Assembly (NCBI GenBank): GCA_030704665.1
Contig: JAUYID010000009.1
Location: forward strand, 160,454-224,453
Reading direction: 5' to 3'
Source of the DNA: a bacterium
GTDB taxonomy: Bacteria; Patescibacteriota; Microgenomatia; Woykebacterales; RBG-16-39-9b
DNA: 64,000 nt
A program made the position numbers and the translations under genes. A model generated the notes under the pieces. It was not told where the DNA came from. It saw only the letters and a program-made list of their open reading frames with translations, and searched no databases. Positions 28,674 to 60,280 of this stretch are shown here, one piece after another. The number at the start of each line of letters is the position of its first letter. The stretch's first letter is position 1.

Positions 28674-31600
28674 CTACTCCTCCTGATCAACTAAGAGCCA
28701 GTTAAATTCAACCGCCTTTGGCGCTGTCACTGGCGCGTTACTTTCAAGACTACTGTCAAGACCAACAGTGAAAGACTCTCCTTCTTTGACTTCCTTTATA
28801 TATAGACTCAGACCCGCAGTTTTTGTTTTTGGGGTCAGATAAATTAACGATTCAGACTTTACCTTTGGAGTTTGGATCGTCACCTCTTCCTGACCAGCTT
28901 CAAAGCTAGCAGTCCCGGCGATTTGGGCAGTTTTTTTGATTGTTAATCTCTCGCCAATGACCAGCTCTTGAACTCGAACAAAAGTTGCTTGAACAGAGCT
29001 AAAGATAGCCTCACCAAGATCAGAAATCGAAGCAACAACTTCTCCAAAAGCGTTCTTAACTTTAAATTGACTTTGAGCTGAAAGTGAGGCAACTAAGTTC
29101 TTTTCTTCATCAAGACTTAGTTTTGCTAGGGCTGAATCATCCAAAGCCAAGGTGCTGACATCAGTTGGATTCGAAGACCCAGTTTCTTGGTTTTGGGTTT
29201 CGCCTTCGGCGACAGTTGTCAAAAGATCAGAATTTTCTGGTTGGGTGATACTGTCGTCCTGCCAGACGCGGAAATAGTCAACATCAAGATTAGCTGTTCC
29301 GGCGGCGGTCGTTACCGACATCAAAAACATTGACATGGCCGTGTTACCCATAGCTGAAGTAGTTGAAGTCACAGTTCCACAACTAGTCTCGACAATTCCG
29401 TTGGTGACATCATTGTCGACAAAAAACTGAATTTCCGGTGAGGTTGTCGAAGTTGCTTTACGAAACTCAATTCTTAAATAAGAAAAGTTGGTCGTTCCGA
29501 AACCAGTGGTTGGACAGGTGACGACGTTGGCAGCGTTGGTCCCATCCTGGACGACCCCGTACCAGCCAGTGGTGTTGCAAGTCGGAGTGGTTGGGGCTGA
29601 ACAAGTAGAGAAGTAAACTCCTTTGTCCCCGACAACAGGAGCGTTTTTCGCAGTTGCAATGTTGCTGATACCAGCATAGTAGCGGGTTGTAGTCGCACTA
29701 ACATTGGTTCTCACTTTCATGACAACTTGGGGGAAATTGCCGGTATTAAAGATATTGTTGTTGGTGTTGTTGGCATTGGTTCCGATGGACTCGAGACAGG
29801 CGACCCCAGTGCCCGTGTTGTAGCTGGAAGCAATCCGCTCAAAACCGTTGGTTGCGTTGTTGGAGGAGTAAGTACAGGTATTACTAGCATTGGAAGTACC
29901 GGCAATAGAGTTGGTGGTGATTTCACCGGTTTGGGCAGTACAGGAAGTAGCTGGGTTGCCGTATTCACCGCGGGCCTGTTGGTGGCTGGTAGCAGTAAAG
30001 CTAGAGTCCGCACAGTTACCACCGCGAAAACTATTGAATTCTTCGGCGAAGTAGGATTGTTTGCTGACAAAGGCGTCAGCCAAGACCAGGGAGCCAAACT
30101 GGGTGCTGTTGCCGGTCAAGTCACGAATTTGGAGAAGGTTGGTAGAGGCAGCATTATTTAGTGTCAGAGAAGTGACAGAGTTGGCCCCTGCCGTATTGAT
30201 AGTAAAGACAGAGGCAGCTTTGTTAAGTCGAATATCAGCTCCGCTTCCGCTGTTTGCAATACTCAGGACCGCACCAGTTGCACTAGGGTAGGCCTGATTT
30301 AAAGAAAGAATGTTGGCCGAATCGGTGACTGCACTTCCAAAACCGGTCCAACTACTTGTGAAAGAAGCAACTGCTCCGGTGATATTTAAAGCGGTACCAT
30401 CATTAATAGTTGTTCTAGAAAGAGACAGTAGGTTCCCACTTCTGGTGCTAGTTCCGGTATCCGAGAAGACCGCTTCCTCAACATTAACCAAATTCCCACT
30501 GATCGTGGCCCCACTCCAATTAAGGAAGTTAGGGTTGAGTTGAATATCCAAAAGTCTACCACTGCTTAGAGTGTTTTCAGCGGTAATCTGAACAGCTTTC
30601 CCCTCGGTCAGGGCACCTGCAGAAGTAACAAAGCCAGTACCACTGGTAAGCGCATCGACTGAGGCGGTGATAGCGGTTGCAGTTTGGACTCCACTGAAAA
30701 GAGAAATAGTTGAAGAAGCGTTGGTGTTGCCGATGTTGATCAGACTTATCCCCGGAGAGTCGTTGTTGTAGCCAATATTTATTTGCTTGTTGGAAGTTCC
30801 GGCACCAAGATCAATTTTTGAGGTAGCCGCAGCACCAGTAGGTACCTCTAGACTAATTGTGTGGACGTTGCCACCAAGATCTTCTAAAGTGGAGATACTA
30901 AAGTAGGTATTACTACCGTTTTTAATAGTCAGAGCGTTGCTCGTGCTGTTGGCCAAAGCAAGGTTGCTCGCCCCAACGAAGTTGATGGCGTTGTCCCAAC
31001 CGGCACCAATATTGATTGCATTTTCGGTCGCTTGGGCATCGGCAGTAATACCGGCAATATCGATACCATTGAAAGTGTTGCTTGAGCCAGTGTGGTCAGC
31101 GTTGGTGTAGTTGAGATAAAGACCGCGGAAAGTATCTGACCCGTCAAAGGCAGCTAAAGAGCCGGAAAGGGTCAAAACATCAGCCCCGTTGCCAGCCGTG
31201 TTGACGCCGTTGTAAGTCCCGGTAGTGAAAGTCGAAACACCAGCTGAAGTAATTCTTGTAATAGCACTGAGCAAAAGGTTCCCACTAGTCAAATCAATAT
31301 TGCCCCCGGTTTCGTTGAGGATAGAGTCCCCAATGTGACTGCCGTCAGGAGTAAATTTGGCAATTCTACCGTCAGTTCCGCTTCCGCCAATGATTCCACC
31401 TGAGCCTGCACAGTTGCCCAAGGTTAGTAAGCAAATTGAGTCTGAAGCAGCACTTGAGACGGGAATAATCACTGTTTTGTCCGCTCCTGGGTCAGCGGCA
31501 GTCAGTTCAATTTCAAAACTGTCTGCAGTTGCGCCTTCAAAGAAGAGACTGTTGCCATCGCCACCAGCGGTAGCGGTGAAGGCGGCTCCAGAAGCGATAT

Positions 31601-34600: not shown

Positions 34601-35786
34601 CCGCCCCACCGTCAGTAAAAGCTGCTCCGGCTAAGATATCACCAATTGCGGTTATATCACCGTTTTTACCTTGACCAGCACAATTGCCACTATTGAGACA
34701 CAAAGTACCAGATTGATCAGGTAAAGAGATGTTTCGATCGGAAGTTAAGGTTGCAGTTTCAAGGAGAGCGCTAAAACTCCCACTTGGGAAGGCGACTCCT
34801 TCTTTGGCATGAACTAGAGAATTAAAATCAGTTTCGACATTGACATTAAAATAAGGATCGATACTGCTTGCCAGTACTACCCCTCCGTTGATTGTCTTGC
34901 TTAAGTCTAGACTTTCAAAAGCAGGACGGGAAAAGAAAAGGCCTTTGGCAAAACTGCCAATCAGTAAAGTTAAAGGAAGAAAAATCAAAATTAGGAAAAC
35001 AGGCAGGGCAAAATTGCGCGAGAGTTTTAAACTCTTGGCAAAACCCCCCGCCAGAAAGGAAGGCTTCTGAGCTTTTATCTCCTCAAGGCTAGGGGAGAGA
35101 GAAACTTCAGGAAAATTTAATTGAGGACGAGCCGGAATAGTGGTGAAAGTTGGCAGTAGAGTGATAGGAAAAGATGTACTTTGATGATTTTGTTGAGCTG
35201 CTTGTCTTGTTTCTGTCTCACTATTTTCTTTATCCTCATTTTTTTCTTCGACCTGTCTTTCTCTCAACAAAGCCTGGATCGTTTTACCTGATTTTAGTTC
35301 TTGGTCAATACCAACTAGGGTTTCAACGACTGACTCTCGATAAGCCCCAGTTGGTGCTGAGAGAGAAAAAGACTTACGGGTGGCATTGGGAAGAAGACCA
35401 ATCTTGGTGTAATAGCGCAGACGGTTGCTTGGATCCCCCTTACCAAAATCAACACCGGCATTTTTAGCTCGGCTAATGATTTTTTCGATCGGTAGCAGGT
35501 CATCCTTATTTTCCCGAAGAATTGCTTGGATTGATTCACCGGACTTGAGGTGGCGATCAATTTCAACAATTTTTTCAACGACTGACTCTCGATAAGCGCC
35601 GGCTGGAGCAGAGCTAGCAAACGATTTTCGGGTCGCTTTTGGCAAAAGCCCAATCTTGGTGTAGTAGCGTAGACGGTTGTAGGGATCTCCTTTACCGAAG
35701 CTAGCACCAAGGTTTTTGGCACGTTCAATAACTTCTGGGAAAGAAATGAGGAGGTCGCTTGAATTGGGCAGATTTCCTTTAGCCAT
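28674..35786 (-). CDS. Giant (2370 aa) membrane-anchored protein. N-terminal tandem MerR-HTH-like repeats, one TM helix, then about 2100 aa of Ser/Thr/Gly/Asn-rich extracellular region. Shares a C-terminal module with the 1645-aa giant protein.
   Basis: Two about 70-aa repeats containing NRLRYYTKIGLLPKATRKSF...GAYRESVV (compare the MerR motif TIRYYE..GLL.P.R...GYR.Y). TM FALPVFLILIFLPLTLLIGSF at about aa 235. C-terminus YFAEEFNSFRGG ... DVDYFRVWQDD ... SLIYLTPKTKTAGLSLYIKE ... FNWLLV is paralogous to 48867-49900. Confidence 0.75.
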   Translation of the reverse strand: MAKGNLPNSSDLLISFPEVIERAKNLGASFGKGDPYNRLRYYTKIGLLPKATRKSFASSAPAGAYRESVVEKIVEIDRHLKSGESIQAILRENKDDLLPIEKIISRAKNAGVDFGKGDPSNRLRYYTKIGLLPNATRKSFSLSAPTGAYRESVVETLVGIDQELKSGKTIQALLRERQVEEKNEDKENSETETRQAAQQNHQSTSFPITLLPTFTTIPARPQLNFPEVSLSPSLEEIKAQKPSFLAGGFAKSLKLSRNFALPVFLILIFLPLTLLIGSFAKGLFFSRPAFESLDLSKTINGGVVLASSIDPYFNVNVETDFNSLVHAKEGVAFPSGSFSALLETATLTSDRNISLPDQSGTLCLNSGNCAGQGKNGDITAIGDILAGAAFTDGGAGNELYFHNGSQGLLTATALSSERTYTLPNLSGTVALQAVSSFTPGSVIFAGSGGLLTQDNSNFFFNNTNNYLGLGTNSPTSTLDVRSSLSSGGLINVEASSATTLTGDLNGLTVDVSGYTGGSPSGTPVLNAILVSNVTPNNAINEAGLRIGTGWENAIEINVDPADANAVTEVTAIQSPVIHVGGNYVKNIAAASLAALTFDPTIIVNTSPDILAGADLFQIISPTYLINQPGVNILTNNINLSNVANVEVASSATGAHTLSALVNYSSFFDLLVDDPGTASLTVSNVNQFSTSSSFLGSGVTTGVTVTNLNGFLINNQVPTGGTLTNQYGIHALNLTGGTNDYAFYSEGADSANIYARAATSNTSTTDVIRLENRAATFTGDYIDISGASSTDGVFDHVLYSINGTPTSTVTSEAASLGGTPFTVGASANDSLNFGESTPFSRVYIDFATLAGAPTSVSWEYCSANASTATACDTWSSLTGVSDGTSNLTSDGTVTWAVPGGWIQSAETGVTPRYYARVFVNSITAGPATAYSATIAATTSGNYLRVAYGGTNIFTLNNFGALNLATPYINTTPLTISAPSNNTSTINGISISGITGGSGSETGISVGTGWDYGIHSQSLVRFDANIELTGSLAAPDLNTEVLCRNNTTTNLIASCSASGGVVGNAFVHLAPEDPDNPGSALADIDNTTRNSIYINKTGASGDLIHLCTGASCATEEFRVDFDGNTTLGGSLLVATTLQTNSSAVIGDELTVSGDINFTTSASIGDGGDALSINSSGTLTISDANLLFSDASDKTIEVCNSVLGIGCNLKINNPSGSTNLNIVSGNLVFGDTSSGQYLYIGTAPTGIRSLVFPDVSGYAVVDTGAGSTKTLASANADGFSLSGGTTSRTLTVSGADVSLNQDLLTTSSPTFVGLLLNPTGGGAGNTGELRFLELAANGSGYAGFKAPDAITTDRIYTLPDDDSLPPSADYVLTWQTGNTLTWKEITGVGAAGDIIAVGDIASGAAFTATAGGDGNSLFFEGATADSFEIELTAADPGADKTVIIPVSSAASDSICLLTLGNCAGSGGIIGGSGTDGRIAKFTPDGSHIGDSILNETGGNIDLTSGNLLLSAITRITSAGVSTFTTGTYNGVNTAGNGADVLTLSGSLAAFDGSDTFRGLYLNYTNADHTGSSNTFNGIDIAGITADAQATENAINIGAGWDNAINFVGASNLALANSTSNALTIKNGSNTYFSISTLEDLGGNVHTISLEVPTGAAATSKIDLGAGTSNKQINIGYNNDSPGISLINIGNTNASSTISLFSGVQTATAITASVDALTSGTGFVTSAGALTEGKAVQITAENTLSSGRLLDIQLNPNFLNWSGATISGNLVNVEEAVFSDTGTSTRSGNLLSLSRTTINDGTALNITGAVASFTSSWTGFGSAVTDSANILSLNQAYPSATGAVLSIANSGSGADIRLNKAASVFTINTAGANSVTSLTLNNAASTNLLQIRDLTGNSTQFGSLVLADAFVSKQSYFAEEFNSFRGGNCADSSFTATSHQQARGEYGNPATSCTAQTGEITTNSIAGTSNASNTCTYSSNNATNGFERIASSYNTGTGVACLESIGTNANNTNNNIFNTGNFPQVVMKVRTNVSATTTRYYAGISNIATAKNAPVVGDKGVYFSTCSAPTTPTCNTTGWYGVVQDGTNAANVVTCPTTGFGTTNFSYLRIEFRKATSTTSPEIQFFVDNDVTNGIVETSCGTVTSTTSAMGNTAMSMFLMSVTTAAGTANLDVDYFRVWQDDSITQPENSDLLTTVAEGETQNQETGSSNPTDVSTLALDDSALAKLSLDEEKNLVASLSAQSQFKVKNAFGEVVASISDLGEAIFSSVQATFVRVQELVIGERLTIKKTAQIAGTASFEAGQEEVTIQTPKVKSESLIYLTPKTKTAGLSLYIKEVKEGESFTVGLDSSLESNAPVTAPKAVEFNWLLVDQEE
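35260..35745 (-). repeat. Tandem direct repeat of about 210 bp, two copies, encoding the duplicated N-terminal HTH-like modules of the giant protein
   Basis: Nucleotide-level similarity between 35290-35500 and 35500-35740, e.g. ccaatcttggtgta(a/g)tagcg(c/t)agacggttg repeated. Confidence 0.6.
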
Positions 35787-35842
35787 GGCAGGTTGGGTTT
35801 AAGGCTATTTCTCGCGACTTACCGTCACGGGAAATGTACCTA

Positions 35843-35923: not shown

Positions 35924-35945
35924 TTAGTTTATTGAAAAGCCTGCC

Positions 35946-48464: not shown

Positions 48465-48841
48465 CTAAGTTTGAAGAGATTTGATTAATCCACTCAACAT
48501 TTTGCCAATTTCCTCATGACCTGATTGTAAATTTTGATAGAGATCTTCTTTTAGATAACCAAGGTCTCGGGCTAAGAGTAAGTGATACTTAGTTTCCTCT
48601 AAAGATCCTCTCGCCATGTTGAGAAATTGCCTAAACTCCTTTTTGTGTGCCTGGAACTACCTTCCACTATGTTAGTTGTGATTGATGCAGAAGATCGTCT
48701 TATTTGATCGCCTAATCGGAATCTTTCTTCACTCGGAAACCGGTTGGTTATTGAATAAACAAAAAGAGTTAGTAGATGTGCTTTTTTCCAAACATCAAGT
48801 TTTTCAAAGCTATTTTTTGTTTTGAATCTTTGATCTTGCAT
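48465..48841 (-). pseudogene. Four-helix-bundle protein (23S rRNA intervening-sequence protein family), frameshifted at an A5 homopolymer
   Basis: The N-terminal 80-aa ORF ends ...NIVEGSSRHTKRSLGNFSTWREDL*. The +1 frame continues KKEFRQFLNMARGSLEETKYHLLLARDLGYL...IGKMLSGLIKSLQT*, the typical C-terminal half. The shift maps to cacacaaaaagg. Confidence 0.6.
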
Positions 48842-48866: not shown

Positions 48867-51800
48867 TTATTCCTTATTCACTATCAACCAGTTGAAACGA
48901 AGGTTCTGGGTTGCCGAGGCACTTGCTTCGCCCGGTAAATCGCCACGGTTTCGTTGTAACCCAACCACAAAGCCCTCACCACTTCGTTTTTCTTTGATAT
49001 AAAAAGTGAGTCCATCGGTTTTGGTCGTTGGGGTGATATAAATCAAAGAAGAGTCAGTTATCTTTTCTGATTCGATGAAGACTTCATTTGCTCCCGGATC
49101 GAAGCTGATCTCACCAGCCACTTGAGAATCGTCTTTGACGACTAGCTCACCAAAAATCAGTTTTCTGAACTCACCTACCCAGGAAGTCACCGAGAGGAAA
49201 ACAGCTTCACCTGAGTTTGAGATCCAAGAGACAGCTTTGCCTGAGGACTGGTACCAAATACCGGCAGCGTTGTTCAGGACTTGATCGAGCTGGTCTTCAG
49301 TGAGTTTGTCAGCGACTAGATCAGAAGCTTGACCTACGACTTGGTGAGATCGAGCCGCAACTGAATCAGGAACATCCTGAACTTCTTGCTCGGGGACCGG
49401 GTAGCTGGGAGCATCGTCCTGCCAGACACGAACATAGTCAATATGAAAATTGAAGTTGCTGTTGAGAGAAGCATTAGCATGAGTATTGGCAAACCAACCC
49501 CAAGCCAAACCATCGACTGTAACCGAACCAAACGCCGGACAGGCAGTCCAACTGACTCCATCGGAGACATCACCATCCACGTAAGCATTGACACTAGCAG
49601 CAGAGGCACCAGCGCTAACGACTTCAATCCTCATGACCGCAAAGTTGGTGGTTGAGATGGTTACACCACAATCTTTGGTACTGATAGTAGCGCCATTCTG
49701 CAAACTGACATTCCAAGTCGTGTCGTTACAGGTACTGGCAGTGGTGGGGTCAGTACAGTTGCTGAAATAAATTCCGCTATCGTCACTGGTGTCCATAATG
49801 TCTTGAGCATCAGTGCTAACTCCTGAGCCGGCCGTACCAAGATTGCCCAGACCGATGAAGTAGCGTGAATTCGTATCCCCAGAGGCGGCTCGGGTCGGTC
49901 TGACCTTAAAAAGGGCAACTGGCAGGTTGTTACTATTAAACATAAGCTGAGCGTCATTGGCAGTGTTGGTACCGATGTACTCGAGACAGGCCGCGTTGCC
50001 AGTCCCATCGGCAGCATTAATTTCTTCATAACCACCATTTGAGTCCGCCACTGAGCGAAAAGCACAGGCTGCAGTTGCGCCTAGGGTGACGGCAACAGAA
50101 ATTGGTCCGGTGGAAGCGGTACAGTTGTTGGTGTTGCCGTCCCCACCACGGGCGTTGACTGTCTCAGCAATGCAACCGGCACCAGCGGTGCGAAGGCGGT
50201 TAAATTCTTCTGCATAGTAACTATTGACACTGGCAAAAGCTCCACCAATCGCCAGACCGCCGAAGTTGGTATTCAAATCCTTGAACTGGAAGAGGGTGTT
50301 GGAAGAAGTGTCTTGCAGGTTTAAGACAGCAGTGTTGTCTGTAGCGGTCAATTTTAGCACTGAAGTCGCCCCGGAAAGCTGGACTTCAGTGTCTGAGTCA
50401 GTGGAAATAACCAAGTCTCCAGTTCCCGCCGGTGTAACGGTGATCGCCCGGTTACTTGCGCTAGTAATGTCAGCCCCACCACTGCTCAGAGTTCCGGTAA
50501 AACTGATACCGGTATCAAAAGTACCGGCGACCGTGATGCCGTTGGCTGTGGCCGAAGCCCCACCATCCTTTAAAGTTAAATTCAGACCGATTTGGTTGCC
50601 AGAAGAGGAGTTGGGGACGGTGTAGTTGGTGGAGAGGTCAATGTCGAGTCCAGTGAGGGCCGCGCTCTGGCTCACGGCAGTGACTGCGCCAACATCGAGA
50701 ATATTGCCGGAAGTTTGAGTGGGCGTGAATTTAAACTCACCGTTTTCTTGAAATTCAAGGGTATGAGCAGTAAGGCTCCCGTTGCGGTAAAATACCCAGC
50801 CAGTGACATTGTCAGCGCTAGCGTTGCCATTGTCTACGCCAATGTATAGGTGAGCGGAGGCGGAGATATTACCGTGTTGCCCCAATCCTCCAAGGTCAGA
50901 CACAGTTAAAGTAAGTTGCCCGCCGCTGTCTCCGACCTTAAAACTACCATCCTCATCTATATTTACGCTTGGAACCCCAGCCCCTCCGTTGGTAATTGTT
51001 AAAGTGTCAGCCGCCGCGTTGTTTAAATCAATAGTGAACGAACCGGAAGAAAGGATTTTGTTGGTACCAAGATTAATACCGTTGGTACAGGAACAACTAG
51101 ACAGATCAATGCCGTCAGTAATAACACCGGAATTTGTAGTTTCGATCAGAACACCGTTGCTGATGGTGGAGGCTGGGTAGTCGGAAACTATGTGGAGACC
51201 GTTTGTTAGAGTAGAAGTAGATGCCCCACAAACTGCCGTAATACATTGCGATGAGGCGTAGAAAGCATCAGTTCCAACCACACTGTGATCACCTACTTCA
51301 ATTGAACCTCCTAAAATACTGTAAGAGAAACCAGTGGTTATATTTCCTTCAGAGGCTCCACTCCCCAATTTTACACCGGTAGACAAAGTTGTACCTGTTG
51401 GTACAGCTATACTAAGACCAATTCCAGCACTAGTTACAGAAATTGCAGTTGTTGTTGTGCCAATGGAAATTGCAGTTGTGGTCGTTGCGCCCAAACTTAT
51501 TCCCGTGGTCATCGTACCAGAGAGGCTAATGCCAGTTGTAAAAGTACCACCGGCGGTGTCAACAAGATTGATACCGTTGGTGATATTACCGCCGGAATTG
51601 GTTATCTCAATGCCGTCGGTGATACCGGCGTTGGCAGCCGAATCGATTTTGAGAGCATTACTTACTACTATGGAGCTGCCGGTCGAAGTGTCCAATTGCT
51701 GCAGTAGTAGCAGGTTCTCGGTTACGTTGTCAGTCGATAAGGAATCGTTTTGAGCGTTGTTAATGACGACTCCAGAATCTGTTCCGGCTGAAGTCCCAGC

Positions 51801-53804
51801 GTTGGTAAAATTAAAGCTAAAGAAGGAAGCGTTAGCATCCATAGTGGCCCAGTCCAAAGTTTGAACTGTTGATCCAAAAGCAATCGCGCCGTTCCCGGCA
51901 GCATCTCCGATCGCGTCCCAAGTGGTGCCGCCAGCTGAGCAAGAACCCCAAGTTGGTACCCCACTGGCACCAGCTCCGGAGAGTAAACACTGACTGCCGG
52001 TTTCTGTCTCAGCGACCCTGGTTACAACTCCACCGGTTGGGTGAGTGTACAAAACTCCGTTGGCATCAGTTCCGTAAGATGAAAAAGTAATGGTTCCGGA
52101 AGAAGTGATTCCAGTGGCTCCGGTGATGGCTCCGGCAGCCGTGATGTCAATGGTTGGGGTATTTAAAAAATTGCTGTAGCCGTCGCCAAAAGCACCGGTG
52201 TTGGTGATCGAGATTGCATCAGTCAGCAACAGATCGGTATCGGCGTTATCAATTGCTATTCCGACATCTAAGCCGTTGGTGTTGGCCGAGGCAGCTTGTT
52301 GGACAAAAATTCCCTGAGTAGTTCCAGCCGAAGATGATGGGGTGGCAACTATTGAAATGACATCGACGGTTCCGGCCAGATCGGAGGTCATAGCTACGTT
52401 TTCGGTTCCCGCCAGCGTAAAGTTGGTAGCGGTGTTAAAGGTCGCCGTGCCGTTGACGGTGATCGCGTCTCCACTGGCATTGCCCAGGCCAATGGTTGAA
52501 GAGTTGACAGCTAGGGTTGTCCCGTCATCTATGGTCAAAGTTCCGGAAGTAAAGTTGTCAGAAGTATCACTTCGCAAAAAGGAAGTTGAGTCAACACCGT
52601 CGAGCGCTCCAGAGTTTAGTGAGTAAGAAACTGAGGAAATTCTCTGTCGGGGAGAGAGAGTTTCACCTTCAACTTCGACTTCGAGGTAGAGAGCTGGGTT
52701 ATCTGTAAAAAGGTCGGCGGGGAAAGCAGTGTCAGCTCCTCCACCAGCGAGACAGTCGTCGGTTGTGTCTTGATCTCCCAGACAAGCCGAGAAAATACCG
52801 TTTGAATCTGGGGTAAGGGTCCAAGTTCTTGAGGTCCATTTGAGAGTTCCGGCAGTTCTGGCATCGTAAATGTAGAAAATAATGTCGGTTGCTCCTGTCA
52901 CCGGAGCATCCGAGCTATTGGTCAGCCTTCCCTGAAAGGAAAGAATTTGGGGTGGGGCAGAGGCGGCCAAGACTGCTCCGGTCAACTCATTGATGTTGAT
53001 TGGCGCAGGAAGCAAATATTTGCTGTAAAAATTCAAACCGACCAGCAAAACTACTCCGGCCAATCCGGCCCAGTTGACATAGTCCGATATAGGATGACCA
53101 CGATAGGCATGCCAAAAACCTGGTCTCCAGACGATTAACCTTTTGAACCAACCAGCCTGACCCTGCCCGGAGGCCGGTTGGTTTTTGTAACTAGTTTCTT
53201 TATGAAAACCCAGGAAAGATTTTAAGCTCCCCAAATAGCGTTTGATTGAAGACTCGGCTAGATTTTGACTGTGTAGAAACGAAGAGTAACGGTTGATGTC
53301 GTTACGATTGATCCTTTTGACCGTCTGGTCATCAATTGAGGCGGAATCCTTTGCGCCAGTTTTCCACAAAAGAAAAGAGGAGACGTCTTTCTGATAGTGG
53401 TAAAGAGTGGCTTTTGAAGAACCCTGCCTTTCTAAATCTTCCAAATAAGCAGCAACTGGCCCATGGTTGATAGCTTTTGACACTGTTTGAACAGAAACGG
53501 CAGAAGGTTGCTTGGTTGGTGGAGCGGTTTTCTTGAGGGGGTAGCCCTTGCTTTCTGCCCAAGAAAGAAAGGATTTGAGACTAAAATAAAAGCGGCGCAG
53601 AGAACTTTCCGAAACCTCTTCGGAAAGTTCTTTTAGAGCTTGGTTCAGATCCTCAGCTTCAAGATAATCAAAAGAAGCAACCTTTGAAAAGACTTTTCGG
53701 ATGTCCGAGGCGTAGTTCTTTAAAGTTGAACGCGAAGAATTAAGGGAGGAGAGGTGTTCTATGAACTCCGGCAGGAGCTTCTCTAGGTCATTGGCAGTTA
53801 ACAT
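48867..53804 (-). CDS. Giant (1645 aa) membrane-anchored protein. Two N-terminal phage-integrase SAM-like (core-binding) domains without a catalytic domain, one TM helix, a large Thr/Ser/Gly/Ala-rich extracellular region, and a C-terminal module shared with the 2370-aa protein.
   Basis: N-terminus STLKNYASDIRKVF...SSLRRFYFSLKSFLSWAESKGY and a second copy SKATLYHYQKDVSSFLLW...SSIKRYLGSLKSFLGFHKE. TM WAGLAGVVLLVGLNFY. C-terminus YYAEEFNRLR ... HIDYVRVWQDD ... SLIYITPTTKTDGLTFYIKE ... FNWLIV. Confidence 0.75.
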   Translation of the reverse strand: MLTANDLEKLLPEFIEHLSSLNSSRSTLKNYASDIRKVFSKVASFDYLEAEDLNQALKELSEEVSESSLRRFYFSLKSFLSWAESKGYPLKKTAPPTKQPSAVSVQTVSKAINHGPVAAYLEDLERQGSSKATLYHYQKDVSSFLLWKTGAKDSASIDDQTVKRINRNDINRYSSFLHSQNLAESSIKRYLGSLKSFLGFHKETSYKNQPASGQGQAGWFKRLIVWRPGFWHAYRGHPISDYVNWAGLAGVVLLVGLNFYSKYLLPAPININELTGAVLAASAPPQILSFQGRLTNSSDAPVTGATDIIFYIYDARTAGTLKWTSRTWTLTPDSNGIFSACLGDQDTTDDCLAGGGADTAFPADLFTDNPALYLEVEVEGETLSPRQRISSVSYSLNSGALDGVDSTSFLRSDTSDNFTSGTLTIDDGTTLAVNSSTIGLGNASGDAITVNGTATFNTATNFTLAGTENVAMTSDLAGTVDVISIVATPSSSAGTTQGIFVQQAASANTNGLDVGIAIDNADTDLLLTDAISITNTGAFGDGYSNFLNTPTIDITAAGAITGATGITSSGTITFSSYGTDANGVLYTHPTGGVVTRVAETETGSQCLLSGAGASGVPTWGSCSAGGTTWDAIGDAAGNGAIAFGSTVQTLDWATMDANASFFSFNFTNAGTSAGTDSGVVINNAQNDSLSTDNVTENLLLLQQLDTSTGSSIVVSNALKIDSAANAGITDGIEITNSGGNITNGINLVDTAGGTFTTGISLSGTMTTGISLGATTTTAISIGTTTTAISVTSAGIGLSIAVPTGTTLSTGVKLGSGASEGNITTGFSYSILGGSIEVGDHSVVGTDAFYASSQCITAVCGASTSTLTNGLHIVSDYPASTISNGVLIETTNSGVITDGIDLSSCSCTNGINLGTNKILSSGSFTIDLNNAAADTLTITNGGAGVPSVNIDEDGSFKVGDSGGQLTLTVSDLGGLGQHGNISASAHLYIGVDNGNASADNVTGWVFYRNGSLTAHTLEFQENGEFKFTPTQTSGNILDVGAVTAVSQSAALTGLDIDLSTNYTVPNSSSGNQIGLNLTLKDGGASATANGITVAGTFDTGISFTGTLSSGGADITSASNRAITVTPAGTGDLVISTDSDTEVQLSGATSVLKLTATDNTAVLNLQDTSSNTLFQFKDLNTNFGGLAIGGAFASVNSYYAEEFNRLRTAGAGCIAETVNARGGDGNTNNCTASTGPISVAVTLGATAACAFRSVADSNGGYEEINAADGTGNAACLEYIGTNTANDAQLMFNSNNLPVALFKVRPTRAASGDTNSRYFIGLGNLGTAGSGVSTDAQDIMDTSDDSGIYFSNCTDPTTASTCNDTTWNVSLQNGATISTKDCGVTISTTNFAVMRIEVVSAGASAASVNAYVDGDVSDGVSWTACPAFGSVTVDGLAWGWFANTHANASLNSNFNFHIDYVRVWQDDAPSYPVPEQEVQDVPDSVAARSHQVVGQASDLVADKLTEDQLDQVLNNAAGIWYQSSGKAVSWISNSGEAVFLSVTSWVGEFRKLIFGELVVKDDSQVAGEISFDPGANEVFIESEKITDSSLIYITPTTKTDGLTFYIKEKRSGEGFVVGLQRNRGDLPGEASASATQNLRFNWLIVNKE

Positions 53805-53845
53805 TGGGCAGGGCTAACTTCCTTTTCAACCGCTATTTTTAAATA

Positions 53846-54075
53846 ACTGATTGATAAATCAGGCAGTTATACTAAAAATAGTAGCAGAAATTTGCCCCTT
53901 TGTCAAACCAAATTGAGTAGAAAAATTAACGTTTTAAATTCAGCAAAAATGGCCTCGAAATTGACCCGAAAGTGCCTTTTTACAACAAAATAAAATTACT
54001 TGATAAATCAAGTAGTTATACTTGAATAACGTCACGCTCCAGCGGGTCATAAATCGGGTAGTTATACTGATTGAA
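53846..54075. repeat. Three direct copies of a 23-bp motif (T[G/C]ATAAATC-NNN-[C/T]AGTTATACT), each with an internal TGAT-AA-ATCA dyad
   Basis: Copies at about 53849-53872, 54001-54022 and 54047-54069. Copy 1 overlaps the transcribed leader of the giant-protein promoter. Confidence 0.6.
53878..53906 (-). promoter_or_regulatory. Sigma70-like promoter (TTGACA-17-TACTAT) of the 1645-aa giant protein gene
   Basis: Minus strand reads ggTTGACAaaggggcaaatttctgcTACTATttttagtataactgcctgatttatcaatcag...aaaaggaag...ATG. Repeat copy 1 lies in the 5' leader just downstream of the -10. Confidence 0.5.
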
Positions 54076-54114
54076 ATATATTACCTGAAGTGATATGGGG
54101 TTAGGGTATTTAGT

Positions 54115-54139
54115 GTCATCCTCGTGAAAAACGAGGATC
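54115..54139. repeat. Stem-loop element GTCATCCTCG-loop-CGAGGATC, copy 1, followed by T5
   Basis: Perfect 9-bp stem. Related copies at 54563-54586 and inverted at 54605-54629. Confidence 0.55.
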
Positions 54140-54242
54140 TGCTTTTTATTACTTTTAGAGGCGTCCCAACCGGGTTAAGAACTCCTTTTCAGTAAAGACA
54201 CACCGGTAAGAACCCGTCAGGGGTTTTTCAGTCGAGCTGAGG

Positions 54243-54551
54243 ATGATTAGAATAAATAATAGAATTATGAAAAACTATTACGTTTATATAATCGGCAACT
54301 CTAGACCGACGCTTTATATCGGGGTGACCAACAACTTAGTTAGGAGAGTTTATGAGCACAAGAATAAGCTAGTTGAGGGTTTTAGCAAAAAGTATGGACT
54401 TAATCTACTTTTGTACTTCGAGTTGTTTTCTAGCGCAGAAGAGGCAATTAAAAGAGAAAAGCAGTTAAAACACTGGAACAGAGAGTGGAAATTAAGGCTT
54501 ATTAAAGAAGGTAACCCAGAGTTTAAAGACTTGTATGGTCAGGCAATTTAA
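54243..54551 (+). CDS. GIY-YIG nuclease superfamily protein (YhbQ/UPF0213-like, 102 aa)
   Basis: YYVYIIGNSRPTLYIGVTNNLVRRVYEHK contains GIY..YIG..R..EH, the hallmark of the family. Confidence 0.7.
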   Translation: MIRINNRIMKNYYVYIIGNSRPTLYIGVTNNLVRRVYEHKNKLVEGFSKKYGLNLLLYFELFSSAEEAIKREKQLKHWNREWKLRLIKEGNPEFKDLYGQAI

Positions 54552-54562
54552 CGGTTGTTCTT

Positions 54563-54629
54563 GTCATCCTCGCGAAGGCGAGGATCTTGCTTGGAAGAAC
54601 AAAAGATCCTCAATCAAGTTGAGGATGAC
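54563..54629. repeat. Two further copies of the GTCATCCTCG...CGAGGATC hairpin in inverted orientation to each other, downstream of the GIY-YIG gene
   Basis: gtcatcctcgcgaaggcgaggatc, then 18 nt later gatcctcaatcaagttgaggatgac. Confidence 0.55.
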
Positions 54630-54777
54630 AAAATTCAGAATTGGAAGAGTTGGTATTTGAGTACCTAGTAGCGGTTATTAATTCTTGGCAGCCCGTGAGA
54701 CGCTCCAGGCGCGTTGACAACAACTCTTTTAGAATCGTTTGCAGCGCTTGTTCGATTTGAGTCGTGAAGGTTAAAGT

Positions 54778-55758
54778 TTACTCGTGGGAGTTGCTTTGTT
54801 GTTTGGATCTGCTGATAATCCAGGCGTTGTAGCGCCGTATTGCGAAGAAGAGAGCCACCAGCAAGACTACAAGGACCGCTGAGGCGATACCAATAGCCTT
54901 CCAAGGGATGATCCAGAAGCTAGTTTGTGCGGAAAGGGTTTTTGAGGTTTGACCGTAAACCAAATCGATTTTGGCCTTGTACAAACCGATCTTGAAACCA
55001 AGATCTTTCCAGGCTAGTTCAAAATTTCTGGTACTTCCCGGCAAAATGTTTCCACCGGCTTCATTGACTGGGATGACGGCAACTTTACCACCGAAGATGT
55101 TGGTGATGGTGATGTTTCCCTTGGGCGCAACATGGACGTTTCCTGAGTTTGAAATTGTTAAATTTAACTTCACATCATGGGTAGTTGGGTAGTTGGGTTT
55201 ACTAGTTTTAAAGGTGGTTATGGTAGCACTCTCTTTTGTATCACCAGAGACACGGACCAAAATAAGCGCTCCTGTTTGGTTGATCAAACCAACACCAGTA
55301 CCGGCGACAGTTGCTGCTTCGGTCGAGAAGAGTATAGCTCCGTAGTGACCACCGGCTTCACCGTTCGTGGGGACAGTAATATTAAAATTGAAAGCTTCAG
55401 ATTTACCTGGTTCAAGAGTGACTGCCTCTTGAGTAAATTTGATCCACTTGGTTAGCGAGTAGGTGGAATTTTCTTCGCCAACATTGAGAAAGACAGGAGT
55501 ACCATCGGTATTGTTTGATTTGAAATCAACGACAATTGGGTAGTAAGTAGTTTTTTGGTTGCCAACATTTTTTATTTTGATAATATCTTGTTGGTTGTCT
55601 CCGGGATCGAGGTTGAATTCATAAAGCGGGGAGCTGACTTCAATACCAGTAGTTTTATTATTGTTAGTGGACTCCTGAGCCAAGGTAATCGGGGTGAGGA
55701 GAAGAGAACCAAGACTGGCAGCGGCAGTTATTTTCGAAATTGTGGACAGTTTTCTCAT
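54778..55758 (-). CDS. Cell-surface protein: signal peptide, beta-rich DUF916-like domain, C-terminal TM anchor (DUF3324-like)
   Basis: N-terminal signal MRKLSTISKITAAASLGSLLLTPITLA. C-terminal TM IGIASAVLVVLLVALFFAIRRY. Architecture matches CscA-type proteins of WxL surface clusters. Confidence 0.5.
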   Translation of the reverse strand: MRKLSTISKITAAASLGSLLLTPITLAQESTNNNKTTGIEVSSPLYEFNLDPGDNQQDIIKIKNVGNQKTTYYPIVVDFKSNNTDGTPVFLNVGEENSTYSLTKWIKFTQEAVTLEPGKSEAFNFNITVPTNGEAGGHYGAILFSTEAATVAGTGVGLINQTGALILVRVSGDTKESATITTFKTSKPNYPTTHDVKLNLTISNSGNVHVAPKGNITITNIFGGKVAVIPVNEAGGNILPGSTRNFELAWKDLGFKIGLYKAKIDLVYGQTSKTLSAQTSFWIIPWKAIGIASAVLVVLLVALFFAIRRYNAWIISRSKQQSNSHE

Positions 55759-55813
55759 TTTTCCTAAATCTTCAAGATTATATCTTCGCCAAAGTAAACA
55801 AGCAAGCTCCCGT

Positions 55814-56875
55814 TTAGAAGTTCCCGGTAGTGATCAAAGTTACAGTGTGAGAGTAGCTTCCCGCTGGTGTGGCTCCGGTAATTGAAGCTGCATGACAAAG
55901 AGTAACTACGTCACCTGCAGTTGGAGCTGAAGCATTGGCGTAAGTCTCAGTACCGTCGATCGGTTCCGCAGCTTCAGAGGCACCTCCACCACAGGCACCA
56001 TCGTAGTCTCCAGCGTCTGGAGTCCCGGTAGTGTCGCTACTAGCAAAACCATATTCTTCTGAGCCGGCATTAACAGCACCTCCTGCTGAATCGCCAATGC
56101 TATTAGTACAAACTGCGACTGACGGAGAACAGAGGTTTCCATCTTCAACCAGGGTGGAGCCGTATCCAGAAGTAGCGTTGGTAACAATAGTATTGGTATA
56201 AGTACAGCCGCTGACACTAGCAGTTGTTAGAGTACCTAGAGCACAAGTAGTGTCGCTCAAAGTCGCAGTAATGGTTGGGTCAACAGTAGCCGAAACGCTG
56301 ACCTGATCAGCACTCATGATTGGGACGGCGAGACTGCCAGTGTCCCCAAAGGTTCCGCCGATCGAAATTGTGTTGCTTCCGTCTGATCCTGGGTTGGTAA
56401 TTTGTTCATTTCCAGCTTCATCGGCGGTGGCGTTGGTGCCAATTTCAATGGTTACCACCGAACTGCCGTTAATATAAGTCGCCGCTCCAGAAGGAGCAGT
56501 TAGAGTCAAAACGTCGGCAGCAAAGGCAGCTCCCCACTCAGTAGCACTAGCGGTACAGCCGCCAGCTTCTTCCTGTATGTCTTCATCGACCGTGTCGTCG
56601 GTAAGGTCGACATCGCCACAATCAATAGTGCTCGTATCAAAGTCAGCGGGGAAAGTCACAGTGATAGTCTCGTCCTGAATTACTTCAGTACCGGCGGTCA
56701 TCGTAAAGCTGATCAAATGGTTGGAGGCGGTTGTAACTGCCAAGCGTGACATAGTGTCAGAAAGAGCGGTAAGGTTGCCGGCTCTTGAAGGGGTAGAGAA
56801 GGCGGGGAAAAGCAGAGAAACCAACAAGGCGGCAGCTAGTATCCTTATTAATTTCTTTCTCAGATTTATTTTCAT
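55814..56875 (-). CDS. Secreted Thr/Gly/Ser/Ala-rich protein with a WxL-like C-terminal motif. Paralog of the 56932 gene.
   Basis: Signal peptide. C-terminus TLCHAASITGATPAGSYSHTVTLITTGNF, paralogous to TICYHASKAGLTPAGSYSQIVTFITTGSF. Resembles the WxL-domain ending AGTYTG..TWTL with W replaced by F/L. Confidence 0.45.
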   Translation of the reverse strand: MKINLRKKLIRILAAALLVSLLFPAFSTPSRAGNLTALSDTMSRLAVTTASNHLISFTMTAGTEVIQDETITVTFPADFDTSTIDCGDVDLTDDTVDEDIQEEAGGCTASATEWGAAFAADVLTLTAPSGAATYINGSSVVTIEIGTNATADEAGNEQITNPGSDGSNTISIGGTFGDTGSLAVPIMSADQVSVSATVDPTITATLSDTTCALGTLTTASVSGCTYTNTIVTNATSGYGSTLVEDGNLCSPSVAVCTNSIGDSAGGAVNAGSEEYGFASSDTTGTPDAGDYDGACGGGASEAAEPIDGTETYANASAPTAGDVVTLCHAASITGATPAGSYSHTVTLITTGNF

Positions 56876-56931
56876 TGCTGGAACAAGGATTAACTATATT
56901 ATGAAGGTCAAGAAAAAGTCTGTCAAGCAAA

Positions 56932-57633
56932 TTAAAAACTGCCAGTGGTAATAAAGGTGACAATTTGACTGTAAGAGCCAGCTGGAGTCAAACCAGCTTT
57001 TGAAGCGTGATAACAAATTGTGTTCACTTCGCCTGAAGAAGAGGTTGGGCCGACCGCCTTCGCGATTAATTTTGCGCTCGTTGTGACAGCAGCCGCATTG
57101 TGATTGACACAACCGGCATCGACTGGAAAATCAAGGCCAGCACTTGAGTTTGAAGTTGCCAGTCCATAGGCTTCAGTGCCAGCGATAATCGGGCTTGCAG
57201 CTACTGGATTAATATCATCACCGACACTGGTGCGCAGATTGCCGTCCTGAATTACAGTCAGATTGTAGCCCTGCATATTGGTAGTCACAGTTACAGTATT
57301 ACTTTGGGTACTAACAGATCCAGTCGAGAGAGTACCAAGGTTAATTGTCGTTGAACTTAAAACTGAAGTAATTGAAGGGATTTGGGCTCCGACGCACTGA
57401 AAACCGCTGCAAGCAGTGTAGTTGGTTGAAATTGATTGCCCAGGGGCAAAGCCACCACCGGTATCGCTTAGATTGTAGTTAGCTGAGGATTTTGAGCCAC
57501 CAAAGATACCAAACTCTCCCTCGAGGTTATAAGTGGCTGAAGTGGAAGTAAAAGCTTCTACCAAGCTAGGGAGAAAAAGAAGTAAAGAAGTAAAGATAGA
57601 TATAGTTAAACAGAACCGGGCAAGGGCCTTCAT
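56932..57633 (-). CDS. Secreted protein, paralog of the 55814 gene, with a WxL-like C-terminus
   Basis: Signal peptide MKALARFCLTISIFTSLLLFLPSLVEA. Shared internal blocks GYNLTVIQDGNL and AGTEAYGLATS, and a shared C-terminal motif. Confidence 0.45.
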   Translation of the reverse strand: MKALARFCLTISIFTSLLLFLPSLVEAFTSTSATYNLEGEFGIFGGSKSSANYNLSDTGGGFAPGQSISTNYTACSGFQCVGAQIPSITSVLSSTTINLGTLSTGSVSTQSNTVTVTTNMQGYNLTVIQDGNLRTSVGDDINPVAASPIIAGTEAYGLATSNSSAGLDFPVDAGCVNHNAAAVTTSAKLIAKAVGPTSSSGEVNTICYHASKAGLTPAGSYSQIVTFITTGSF

Positions 57634-57733
57634 TAAAGCAATTTTACTTCTTTAAGATGGGTAACTGCAAATTTGCCTTTTATTTCAGCAAAGCTTAAAA
57701 TGTGGCAGAATTACAGTTATAATTAATAAATTC

Positions 57734-60280
57734 ATGCGTCCTTATTTACCAAAAGAAATTGAAGCTAAGTGGCGAAAGCGTTGGGAGTCTGCCAAATCCT
57801 TCGAGGTTGATATCGAAAAAGCGCCGGAGCCTTTCTACAACTTGATGATGTTCCCTTACCCATCTGGCGAAGGTTTGCACGTCGGGCATGTTTACGCCTT
57901 TGGGGGAGCGGATACTTTCGGCCACTACATGAAAATGAAGGGTAAAGATGTCTTTGAGCCGATGGGTTTTGACAGCTTTGGAATTCATTCTGAGAATTTT
58001 GCGATCAAACAAGGTAAACACCCCAAAGAACTCATAGAGCAGACTACAAAATATTTCCGTGAAGAGCAATTAAAAAAGCTCGGGGCGCTTTTTGATTGGC
58101 AACACTCAGTGACTACTTCTGATCCAGATTATTACCGTTGGACACAGTGGTTATTTATCCAGCTTTTTAAAGCTGGTTTAGCGGTCCGTAAGAAAGCTAA
58201 AGTTGACTGGTGCCCAAGCTGTAAAACTGTCTTGGCTGATGAGCAGGTTATCGGCGGAAAATGTGAGCGTTGTGGGACCGAAGTTGAGAGTAAGGAACTT
58301 GAGCAGTGGTTTTTTAAAATTACCGATTATGCCCAGAGACTGCTCGACAATTTAGAAAAGATTGACTGGTCTGAGACGACGAAAACAATGCAGAAGAATT
58401 GGATTGGTCGCAGTGACGGTGCCGAGATCAAATTCAAACTAAGAAATGTTCCCGGACAGGAAGATGGTAAGCACTCAGTCAGCGTTTATACTACCAGACC
58501 CGAGACAATTTTCGGGGCAACCTTTTTGGTTATTTCTCCGGAAACCGTTAAATCCTGGTTGGAGGTTGGTTGGAAAGCCTCTGATGAAGTTAAAAGCTAC
58601 GTTGAGGAAAGTTTAAACAAAACTGAGATTACCCGCCAAGAAGAAGGTAAGGACAAGACTGGAATCGATTCTGAGATTAAAGCAGTGCACCCCCTCACCG
58701 GCGAATTGCTACCAGTTTGGGTAGCTGATTATGTCCTTGGTTCCTATGGTAGTGGAGCAATTATGGCAGTACCAGCTCACGACCGGAGAGATTACGCTTT
58801 TGCCAAGAAGTTCAAGCTACCTATTGTGGAAGTTATTGACGGTCAAGTCTCAGATAAAGAAGTTTGGGAAGGAGAAGGCAAGCTGATCAACTCAAGACAG
58901 TTTAACGGTCAAAGTACCCAAGAGGCTAAAAATAATATATCAAAATATCTCGAAGAAAATCAATACGGATCAGTAAAAGTTAACTACCACCTCCGCGACT
59001 GGCTGATTTCTCGCCAGCGCTATTGGGGTCCACCGATCCCAATGATCTACTGTAGTAAATGTGCAGAAGAGGGTAAATCTTGGTTTACTTCCGAGGAAGC
59101 AAAGAATTGGCAAAATGAAAAATTAAAAATTAAAAGTGGAAAAATTCTTCATTCTTCATTCTCAATTCTTAATTCCCAGATGGTTGGTTGGTATCCTGTG
59201 TCCGAGAAAGACTTACCGGTTGAATTACCCGAGATCGAAGACTACCAACCCAAAGGCAGCGGTGTCAGTCCACTCTCGTCTTTGCCAGAATTTGTGAGCG
59301 TAAAATGCCCTAGTTGCGGCGAAGATGCCAAAAGAGAGACTGACGTTTCCGACACCTTTCTCGACTCCTCCTGGTATTTCTTGCGTTACCCTTCAACCAA
59401 GGTAAAGAATGAGCCTTTCGATCGAAGCCTAACTAAAAAGTGGTTGCCGGTGGATATGTATATTGGTGGCAATGAGCACGCGGTCTTGCATCTGCTTTAC
59501 ACCCGCTTCATCACCATGGTCCTACGTGATCAAGGTTGGCTCAACTTTGAAGAACCTTTCAAAAAGTTCCGGGCTCATTCTTTGATCACTTACAAAGGGG
59601 CCAAAATGAGTAAATCGCGCGGCAATGTCATCAATCCGAACGAGTACATGGATACTTATGGAACTGACACCCTGCGTATGTACCTTCTTTTCATTGGTCC
59701 TTATGATCAAGGTGGGGAGTTCAATGACCGGGCGATTGCTGGTATGTTCCGCTTTCTTGCCCGAGTTTGGACACTCACCCAAGAAGTAAAAGAAAAACCT
59801 GGTCATCAAATTGACCCAGAGCAAAACAAGAAGCTCCAAGAACTGATCAAAAATCTTGACCGTGGGATTTCAAGTTTGAAGTTTAACACTAGCATTGCCT
59901 ACCTGATGGAATTCGTGAACTTGCTTTACAAAAACAAAGAAAAAGTTCATCTTGAACTATTGAAGCAGTTTGTACTAGTTTTGGCACCTTTTGCTCCATT
60001 TATTGCTGAGGAAATTTGGGGAGAACTTGGCGGGGATTTTTCAGTTCACCAGCAAAGCTGGCCAGAGTTTGATTCTTCGGCTTTGGCGAAAAAATATGTT
60101 ACTGTTGTTGTGCAGGTCAACGGAAAAATGAGAGACAAAATTGAGGTCAGTAGTGAGGCCGCGGAAGAGGAAGTAACCCGCTTGGTTGTTGACCGACCCA
60201 AAATAAAAAATTACACTCAAGGCAAGAGAATAAAGAAAACGATCTTCGTCAAAGGGAGACTCGTCAATTTAGTTGTTTAA
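57734..60280 (+). CDS. leuS: Leucyl-tRNA synthetase
   Basis: HIGH motif (PYPSGEGLHVGHVYAF). Editing domain. KMSKS (GAKMSKSRGN). 848 aa. Confidence 0.9.
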   Translation: MRPYLPKEIEAKWRKRWESAKSFEVDIEKAPEPFYNLMMFPYPSGEGLHVGHVYAFGGADTFGHYMKMKGKDVFEPMGFDSFGIHSENFAIKQGKHPKELIEQTTKYFREEQLKKLGALFDWQHSVTTSDPDYYRWTQWLFIQLFKAGLAVRKKAKVDWCPSCKTVLADEQVIGGKCERCGTEVESKELEQWFFKITDYAQRLLDNLEKIDWSETTKTMQKNWIGRSDGAEIKFKLRNVPGQEDGKHSVSVYTTRPETIFGATFLVISPETVKSWLEVGWKASDEVKSYVEESLNKTEITRQEEGKDKTGIDSEIKAVHPLTGELLPVWVADYVLGSYGSGAIMAVPAHDRRDYAFAKKFKLPIVEVIDGQVSDKEVWEGEGKLINSRQFNGQSTQEAKNNISKYLEENQYGSVKVNYHLRDWLISRQRYWGPPIPMIYCSKCAEEGKSWFTSEEAKNWQNEKLKIKSGKILHSSFSILNSQMVGWYPVSEKDLPVELPEIEDYQPKGSGVSPLSSLPEFVSVKCPSCGEDAKRETDVSDTFLDSSWYFLRYPSTKVKNEPFDRSLTKKWLPVDMYIGGNEHAVLHLLYTRFITMVLRDQGWLNFEEPFKKFRAHSLITYKGAKMSKSRGNVINPNEYMDTYGTDTLRMYLLFIGPYDQGGEFNDRAIAGMFRFLARVWTLTQEVKEKPGHQIDPEQNKKLQELIKNLDRGISSLKFNTSIAYLMEFVNLLYKNKEKVHLELLKQFVLVLAPFAPFIAEEIWGELGGDFSVHQQSWPEFDSSALAKKYVTVVVQVNGKMRDKIEVSSEAAEEEVTRLVVDRPKIKNYTQGKRIKKTIFVKGRLVNLVV

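Follow-up and report, generated by a model that had tools for sequence, protein, structure and literature searches.

Introduction

Bacterial operator arrays such as lac O1/O2/O3, gal OE/OI, deo and lambda OL/OR combine a dyad-symmetric primary site that overlaps the transcription start with one or two further copies placed 50-200 bp away within one control region, and the distance between primary and auxiliary sites is conserved. In the Patescibacteria, also called Candidate Phyla Radiation (CPR) bacteria, almost nothing is known about transcription control, and to our knowledge their giant surface proteins, presumed to mediate host-cell contact, have no defined operator-regulator pair. In this study, we analysed a stretch of 64,000 nucleotides of contig JAUYID010000009.1 (assembly GCA_030704665.1), hereafter called the window, in which three copies of one repeat lie in the intergenic region upstream of a giant gene encoding a 1645-aa protein. 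We put the probability that the three repeats are a conserved operator set for one sequence-specific DNA-binding protein, whichever protein binds them, at roughly 0.65. Protein binding, repression and looping are what we infer from the arrangement of the sites.

The set resembles the lac/gal-type arrays in its dyad-symmetric primary site and in the further copies nearby; the overlap of the primary site with the transcription start is a predicted one here, and the distance between primary and auxiliary site is kept at 148-150 bp in four genomes and at 161-162 bp in two. It differs from them in that the site is 30 bp long with two conserved blocks in each half-site, in that the auxiliary sites are dispensable in some relatives, and in that looping is only putative. 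The operator set is well supported and previously undescribed, in that the literature searched held no matching description, and functionally its nearest counterparts are the lac/gal-type arrays. The control region, comprising promoter, primary site O1, further sites O2 and O3 and an upstream block, is now delimited across nine genomes.

Results

The original prediction described three 23-bp direct repeats with internal dyads. An exact search of the 64 kb for the pattern T[G/C]ATAAATC-NNN-YAGTTATACT (right arm AGTTATACT; searched as TSATAAATCNNNYAGTTATACT) gave three matches without any mismatch, namely 53852-53873, 54001-54022 and 54047-54068, each of them on the + strand, versus a mean of 0.03 matches in shuffled sequence, and allowing up to three mismatches added one further match, a poor one at 54249-70. 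A repeat finder recovered this 23-nt family as well, its copies starting 149 and 46 bp apart. The repeats thus exist as described and exceed chance by far. The internal dyads were borne out for copies 1 and 2 but not for copy 3. Extended to the left, copies 1 and 2 each complete a 30-bp imperfect dyad, TATAACTnnTTGAT-AA-ATCAnnnAGTTATA, of which they form the right-hand part; the sites are as follows:

53842..53871: O1, 30-bp imperfect dyad AATAACTGATTGAT-AA-ATCAGGCAGTTATA; 11/14 arm positions complementary; holds copy 1 (53851-53873)
53991..54020: O2, 30-bp imperfect dyad TAAAATTACTTGAT-AA-ATCAAGTAGTTATA; 12/14 arm positions complementary; holds copy 2 (54000-54022)
54046..54068, + strand: O3, half-site GTCATAAATCGGGTAGTTATACT, identical with copy 3; centre and right arm only, 3/14 symmetry

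Within each half-site two blocks are conserved, TATAACT on the outer side and TTGAT on the inner side; a variant with ACAA in the inner arm occurs in L126. In the right arm, AGTTATA is invariant and is the mirror of TATAACT in the left arm, and the position that follows varies (C/T/A). Among the 13 sites tabulated from the first four genomes, nine have at least 9 of the 14 arm positions symmetric (9-12).

The giant gene is transcribed leftward, and a consensus scan of the - strand recovered a promoter for it with 10/12 matches, so that copy 1 lies, as had been claimed, between the -10 element and the start codon:

53878..53906, - strand: sigma-70-type promoter; -35 TTGACA (53906-01), 17-nt spacer, extended -10 TGC-TACTAT (53886-78)
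53913..53930: conserved block TTGAGTAGAAAAATTAAC (TTGAGTA.AAAA.TTAAC), directly upstream of the -35
53805..53811, - strand: CTGCCC(A/G) context directly 5' of the ATG

The hexamer TACTAT (53883-78) is preceded by TG, and the ATG is at 53804. O1 begins 4 bp after the -10, which places the predicted (unmapped) transcription start site, at ~53870-53873, at the edge of O1; the dyad thereby spans ~+1 to +30 of the predicted transcript. The centre of O2 is ~134 bp upstream of this predicted start and 149 bp from O1, and O3 is 46 bp beyond O2.

Nine loci were compared: the window, L122, L123, L126, L130, L131, L132, L133 and L066. They were fetched via the leucyl-tRNA synthetase LeuRS, via the N-terminal domain of the giant protein and via a neighbouring gene; eight were placed in one alignment (A6), and L066 was compared separately. 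The LeuRS of the window is identical to a protein from an NCBI metagenome-assembled genome that has a 938-kb contig. The closest relatives share 61-72% LeuRS identity and are placed near Woykebacteria/Microgenomates, and the N-termini of the giant proteins among these genomes are 40-49% identical. The gene order giant gene (-), intergenic region, three secreted-protein genes (-) and LeuRS (+) is found in L122, L123/L124, L132 and L133. In L126 the secreted-protein genes still stand beside the giant-gene locus, and the fetched stretch does not include LeuRS; L130, L131 and L066 are orthologous through giant gene and promoter, with a neighbourhood that is different or incompletely fetched. A Logan contig, L121, is 100% identical to window positions 50344-64000 and extends it by 5.5 kb. 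The motif and position weight matrix (PWM) scans cover the 64-kb window and this extension, together ~7% of the 938-kb source genome, and 22.5, 22.5 and 8.8 kb of relatives.

The full dyad at the position of O1, together with the same promoter, is present at all nine orthologous giant-gene loci. Mean column identity in A6 is 0.87 in O1, versus 0.57-0.62 in the promoter spacer and other intergenic stretches (0.57-0.67 for the spacers with which O1, the -35 and O2 are compared together), and column identity in O2 is 0.88 over the five A6 genomes having O2. A second dyad lies 148-162 bp upstream of O1 in 6/9 loci, at O1-O2 distances of 149 bp in the window, 148 in L122, 149 in L123, 150 in L126, 162 in L131 and 161 in L066, whereas O2 is degenerate in L130, L132 and L133. 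A third element is found in four of the nine (the window; L122, at 6377; L131, element E3; L066, at 7150-70), and between O2 and O3 the sequences can be aligned. With a PWM built from the other genomes only, O1 scores 40.9 bits and O2 38.0 bits, the window sites scoring highest of all. Thus sites, promoter and O1-O2 distance are kept despite the low identity of LeuRS and of the protein N-termini, and this comparison is the decisive evidence in support of the operator-like reading that had been proposed.

In a leave-one-genome-out PWM scan of 64 + 22.5 + 22.5 + 8.8 kb, matches above 12 bits occurred only at these intergenic sites, and no further copy of the motif was present in the 64-kb window, the 5.5-kb extension or the 22.5, 22.5 and 8.8 kb of relatives. 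Since the matches are confined to the giant-gene intergenic region in everything scanned, the motif is locus-specific and not a generic, REP-like repeat. In a more distant ortholog with a single core-binding (CB) domain (L128, Woykebacteria), the motif is absent and the 5' untranslated region (5' UTR) contains a different dyad. A genome-contig scan with the exact 20-nt core gave, among the matches listed, mostly single chance ones in unrelated taxa, the only relatives among them being L050 (the contig of L130) and L066. A second metagenome scan recovered L125 and L126, whereas a metagenome scan with patterns from the extreme N-terminus had no match, and exact look-ups of the giant protein, P0001 and P0002 returned no contigs. 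Rfam gave no family, only chance-level matches, in the intergenic region of the window (gathering threshold) and of L122 and L123 (E-value threshold).

L066 (CAYIWY010000007.1, contig positions 64001-72000) bears the label 'uncultured Gammaproteobacteria bacterium', yet O1, O2 and O3 are all present, next to a giant gene (1663 aa, similar C-terminus) that is the closest ortholog available. It is probably a mis-binned CPR contig.

The promoter is conserved along with the sites. TGTCAA, the -35 as read on the + strand, is common to all nine loci and invariant in A6 (column identity 1.0); the extended -10 is readable as TGC-T....T in the first four loci examined (window, L122, L123 and L126), and L066 has the same TGTCAA-N6-TTGAGTA block. 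The block at 53913-53930 has a mean column identity of 0.85 with 10 invariant columns in the eight loci of A6, and it may be a UP-element-like sequence, an activator site or a further protein site. A similar TTTGTCAA-N6-TTGAAGCTAAAATT precedes a paralogous giant gene in L122 (~21985-22012), and the block may be an element common to giant-gene promoters. To the right of O3 lies one more putative promoter element:

54091..54096, + strand: TGATAT, putative remnant of a divergent promoter, from sequence comparison only

In L131 the sequence at this position is TGTGATATAAT, ahead of a divergent gene.

In the leader, GGGCAG next to the start codon is invariant in A6. CCTGCC(CA) stands directly before the ATG of both giant genes of the window and of the gene at 35946 (53805-53811, -; 35787-35792, -; 35940-35945, +), and also at 9520-9530 in L128 and at 21923-21928 in L122. 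The other genes of the window mostly lack a Shine-Dalgarno sequence and start after a very short leader, and CCTGCC(CA) may be a special translation-initiation or regulatory context.

The giant protein combines a DNA-binding-type module with a membrane anchor and a large outer part (SAM-like here denoting the Phage_int_SAM fold of CB domains):

48867..53804, - strand: giant gene, 1645 aa; two CB/SAM-like domains, transmembrane (TM) helix, ~1380-aa ectodomain
53535..53804, - strand: CB/SAM-like domain 1, aa 1-90 (Pfam, AlphaFold)
53181..53471, - strand: CB/SAM-like domain 2, aa 112-208 (Pfam, AlphaFold)
53016..53093, - strand: TM helix, aa 238-263 (AlphaFold model), preceded by a basic juxtamembrane segment

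The N-terminal DNA-binding-type domain foreseen from the sequence was recovered as two Phage_int_SAM domains (Pfam E = 5e-14), and the fold agrees: AlphaFold gives four-helix domains at aa 4-85 and 116-207 and a disordered linker, followed by the TM helix, and the top Foldseek matches of the N-terminus are XerA, Cre, XerH and the lambda Int core-binding domain (2oxo: root-mean-square deviation 2.3 A, TMt 0.73). A PDB sequence search with the N-terminus gave one weak match, to an integrase N-domain. In Pfam, the protein matches Phage_int_SAM models only, and no catalytic Phage_integrase domain was found. Domain 2 and the juxtamembrane segment are basic, and domain 1 is acidic in the window protein (net charge -3, isoelectric point 5.1). 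There is no signal peptide, and the positive-inside rule points to an N-in topology with a single TM helix and an extracytoplasmic C-terminal part. The NCBI name of the protein, 'site-specific integrase' (MDP2671066.1), is misleading for a surface protein that is anchored in the membrane and has its tandem CB module in the cytoplasm; the name is likely a systematic misannotation of the giant-protein family.

Among 1.84 billion representatives searched with HMMER, only nine carry the full N-terminal module, and the same scan listed many other proteins of 1.5-5.4 kaa that begin with tandem SAM-like domains. The literature searched does not describe a fusion of SAM-like/CB domains to TM giant proteins in CPR bacteria. 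The window encodes a second giant protein of 2370 aa (28674-35786, -) with two tandem ~90-aa N-terminal repeats, which have a weak match to a MerR/excisionase-type helix-turn-helix (HTH), followed by a TM segment; one such repeat is present in the paralogous giant genes of L122 and L127 and in P0002. This suggests that DNA-binding-type N-terminal modules are exchanged on a common juxtamembrane-TM-ectodomain chassis.

Discussion

In the mechanism that we propose for the operator set, a dimeric or tandem-domain protein would occupy O1 and repress the giant gene by blocking the binding of RNA polymerase or its escape from the promoter. O2 and O3 would raise the local concentration of the binder and add cooperative occupancy with O1, and they might loop the 149-bp segment that contains the promoter; the conserved O1-O2 distance is compatible with looping. 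O3 would sit beside the putative remnant of the divergent promoter.

As to the protein that binds, the leading candidate is the cytoplasmic N-terminus of the giant protein itself, although we hold this autoregulation, which had also been raised in the original prediction, to be a tentative proposal. More specifically, and no less doubtfully, the autoregulator would consist of tandem CB domains that have lost any catalytic partner and are tethered to the membrane by the TM helix, and at its own promoter it would contact the half-sites of the 30-bp dyads, each with its two blocks. Apart from this tandem CB pair, no DNA-binding-type module is encoded at the locus in all of the nine genomes. Several further findings speak for autoregulation: each chain offers two domains for the two blocks of a half-site; the juxtamembrane segment and domain 2 are basic and the CB identity is given by both Pfam and fold; the single-CB ortholog of L128 is without the motif; and an ortholog of the PaaX-like protein discussed below was not found from the source genome, yet the window sites score highest. 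A broader version, which fits the data, covers the CPR giant proteins at large: whether the N-terminal module is made of CB domains or of MerR/excisionase-like HTH domains, and whether of one or of two, each would recognise a dyad in the 5' region of its own gene.

If autoregulated, the giant protein would resemble ToxR, CadC and TcpP, in which one protein acts on a promoter directly from the membrane, with a DNA-binding module at its cytoplasmic N-terminus, one TM helix and a domain outside the cytoplasm. Unlike ToxR and CadC, it has two CB/SAM-like four-helix domains and no OmpR-type winged helix, and its outside part is a surface protein of >1300 aa rather than a small sensor domain. Considering that the fold is that of CB domains and not a winged helix, the giant protein is not a member of the ToxR/CadC family. 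Autoregulation, if true, would define a new class of membrane-tethered transcription factors built from recombinase core-binding domains, would tie the transcription of a host-contact protein on the cell surface to the state of that protein, and would explain the annotation of these surface proteins as integrases.

Several points weigh against the operator set as we read it and against the giant protein as its binder. With O2 degenerate in 3/9 loci and O3 present in only 4/9, looping cannot be essential, and O1-O2 distances of 149 and of 161-162 bp are 1.2 helical turns apart and thus loosely in phase; for helical phasing, as for protein-DNA covariation, nine genomes are a small sample. As the scans reached ~7% of the source genome, further sites or a wider regulon are possible, and O1 could be a 5'-terminal RNA hairpin. 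CB domains alone, as in lambda Int and the Xer proteins, usually bind DNA weakly; domain 1 of the window protein is the acidic one; a membrane-tethered protein must reach its own promoter; and phylogeny is a confounder of the joint occurrence of motif and tandem-CB clade.

Alternatively, the same operator array may be bound by a soluble factor, in the first place a PaaX-like repressor and otherwise a distant paralog of it or another regulator encoded elsewhere, given that the comparison covered part of each genome, which we consider possible though not the expected outcome. A divergent repressor gene that has a common intergenic region with its target is the classical arrangement of a local regulator, and an orthologous PaaX_M-family gene does occupy the divergent slot beside the sites in L130, L132 and L133. 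In L126, a PaaX-like gene is close by, and a full dyad (C3, 11/14) is located ~120 bp upstream of it. In this, 4/9 loci resemble CPR/Microgenomates PaaX-family repressors, with a PaaX-like gene that diverges from the giant gene and uses one control region with it. However, the best sites stand at the loci without a PaaX-like gene, those of the window, L122, L123, L131 and L066; a homolog search that listed matches down to 29% identity contained no PaaX-like protein from the 938-kb contig of the source genome; and O2 has decayed in exactly the three genomes with an adjacent PaaX-like gene. Moreover, the promoters of the PaaX-like genes carry another palindrome, TACGATCGTA, at ~-35 (L126, ~3060-3075; L130, ~585-600; L132, ~345-360; L133, ~3895-3910), which is probably their own operator, distinct from the 30-bp dyad. 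From L126, the PaaX-like protein and the 152-aa open reading frame (ORF) were used in tblastn searches of the window and of L121-L125, which gave no match. With an ordinary soluble repressor as binder, the locus would be a well-documented but conventional operator set.

It is improbable, in our estimation, that copy 1 works as RNA, i.e. as a 5'-end stem-loop that stabilises the long mRNA or modulates its translation, with copies 2 and 3 as duplicates without function. The O1 dyad does fold as a 5'-end hairpin of the predicted 5' UTR in 4/4 genomes tested (z-scores -1.8 to -3.9), both arm mismatches in L123 are G-U pairs on the mRNA strand, and L128 and the paralogous giant genes also have a dyad in the 5' UTR, of different sequence. 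However, a compensatory change is seen in 0/9 predicted pairs, the unpaired inner positions of the dyad vary without compensation, and the arms are conserved as sequence rather than as pairing. O2 and O3, furthermore, are upstream of the promoter and outside the mRNA, yet O2 is conserved to the same degree as O1. A secondary role of O1 as a 5' stem-loop, beside that of an operator, is possible.

Very unlikely is a reading of the right arm AGTTATACT as the -10 element of rightward (+) promoters, for a small RNA ending at the hairpin at 54118-54148 or for the mRNA of the GIY-YIG gene located to the right. TATACT is a good -10 hexamer, TGTGTTATACT forms an extended -10 before a divergent ORF with a strong ribosome-binding site in L126, TATACT-N4-GAAA(T/C)ATA after the last copy is common to the window, L122 and L123, and a terminator-like hairpin follows at 54118-38. 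There is, however, no -35 at 16-18 bp (TTGATA is 11 bp away), the promoter scan gave none for copies 2 and 3, and the terminator-like hairpin is part of the GIY-YIG insertion and absent in relatives. The would-be -7 T varies (TATACT, TATATA, TATAAA, TATACA, TATACG, TATACC), whereas AGTTATA is invariant.

We give hardly any credence to the copies being arm-type or other recombination sites of a mobile element, the GIY-YIG gene or another, or core sites of a tyrosine recombinase. The copies are co-oriented, and their inverted arms of 11-6-11 (or 13-2-13) resemble dif, lox and att core sites: the site can be read as ATAACTGATTG-ATAAAT-CAGGCAGTTAT, a geometry compatible with but unspecific to recombinase sites; dif (11-6-11) and loxP (13-8-13) likewise have 11-13-bp inverted arms around a short asymmetric centre. 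The CB domains of the adjacent giant protein are of XerC/D-lambda Int type, the cargo found to the right of O3 differs in every genome, and the outer arm ATAACT/AGTTAT equals the outer 6 bp of the loxP arms, which we take to be probably a coincidence. Nevertheless, the sites are present in eight relatives without the GIY-YIG gene there (L122, L123, L126, L130, L131, L132, L133 and L066), with which the mobile-element reading linked to that gene fails, and no copy lies on the far side of the gene. The flanks of O1 and O2 are syntenic and alignable across A6, and L066 has the same O1, promoter block and O2 with variable cargo only beyond O3; these are therefore not recombination junctions. Unlike tyrosine-recombinase core sites, the three direct copies are fixed relative to a promoter, show no sign of recombination and have no similarity to the dif consensus; no recombinase catalytic domain is encoded at the locus, nor was a recombinase found among the 38 window ORFs scanned. 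In viral contigs, nine single matches to the core pattern were found, with no full dyad (PWM <=15 bits) and none repeated within a contig.

A chromosomal dif site was rejected, as there are three promoter-linked copies and no skew switch, and none of the sigma-54, ECF and sigma-28 promoter layouts or the DnaA, LexA, Fur, CIRCE and parS consensuses fits the repeats.

Neighbouring genes and other observations

Between O3 and the WxLIP-type gene, the loci have a slot of variable content, at these coordinates:

window: 54100-54777
L066: 7170-7886
L131: 2682-2740
L126: 2492-3760
L122: 6450-6996
L123: 6136-7034

Its cargo is the GIY-YIG gene in the window, an IS200/RAYT-like 208-aa gene with GTACACCCGG hairpins in L066, a GDSL lipase gene in L131, the 152-aa ORF and PaaX-like gene in L126, and the PaaX-like gene in L130, L132 and L133; in L122 and L123 it is GC-rich DNA with Cys-rich small ORFs, non-homologous between the two. 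The GIY-YIG gene of the window (54243/54268-54551), whose true start is probably the ATG at 54268 (the Pfam match begins at residue 11), is bracketed by three hairpins of the form GTCATCCTC-loop-GAGGATC that are found nowhere else in the window:

54115-54139, + strand: GTCATCCTC...GAGGATC hairpin, flanking the GIY-YIG gene
54563-54587, + strand: second such hairpin
54605-54629, - strand: third such hairpin

Given that the GIY-YIG gene is in none of the eight related loci, it is apparently a cassette that was inserted and whose hairpin ends are its own.

The three genes neighbouring the intergenic region encode secreted or surface proteins and form a WxL-type cluster. At the other end of the window, a fragment of an rRNA operon (12-86, 776-850, 999-3916 and 4081-4197) has, upstream of the 23S gene, tRNA-Ile and tRNA-Ala with an unusually long spacer of 690 nt between them. 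At 48599-48841, a short way downstream of the giant gene, is an 80-aa '23S rRNA intervening sequence protein' gene.

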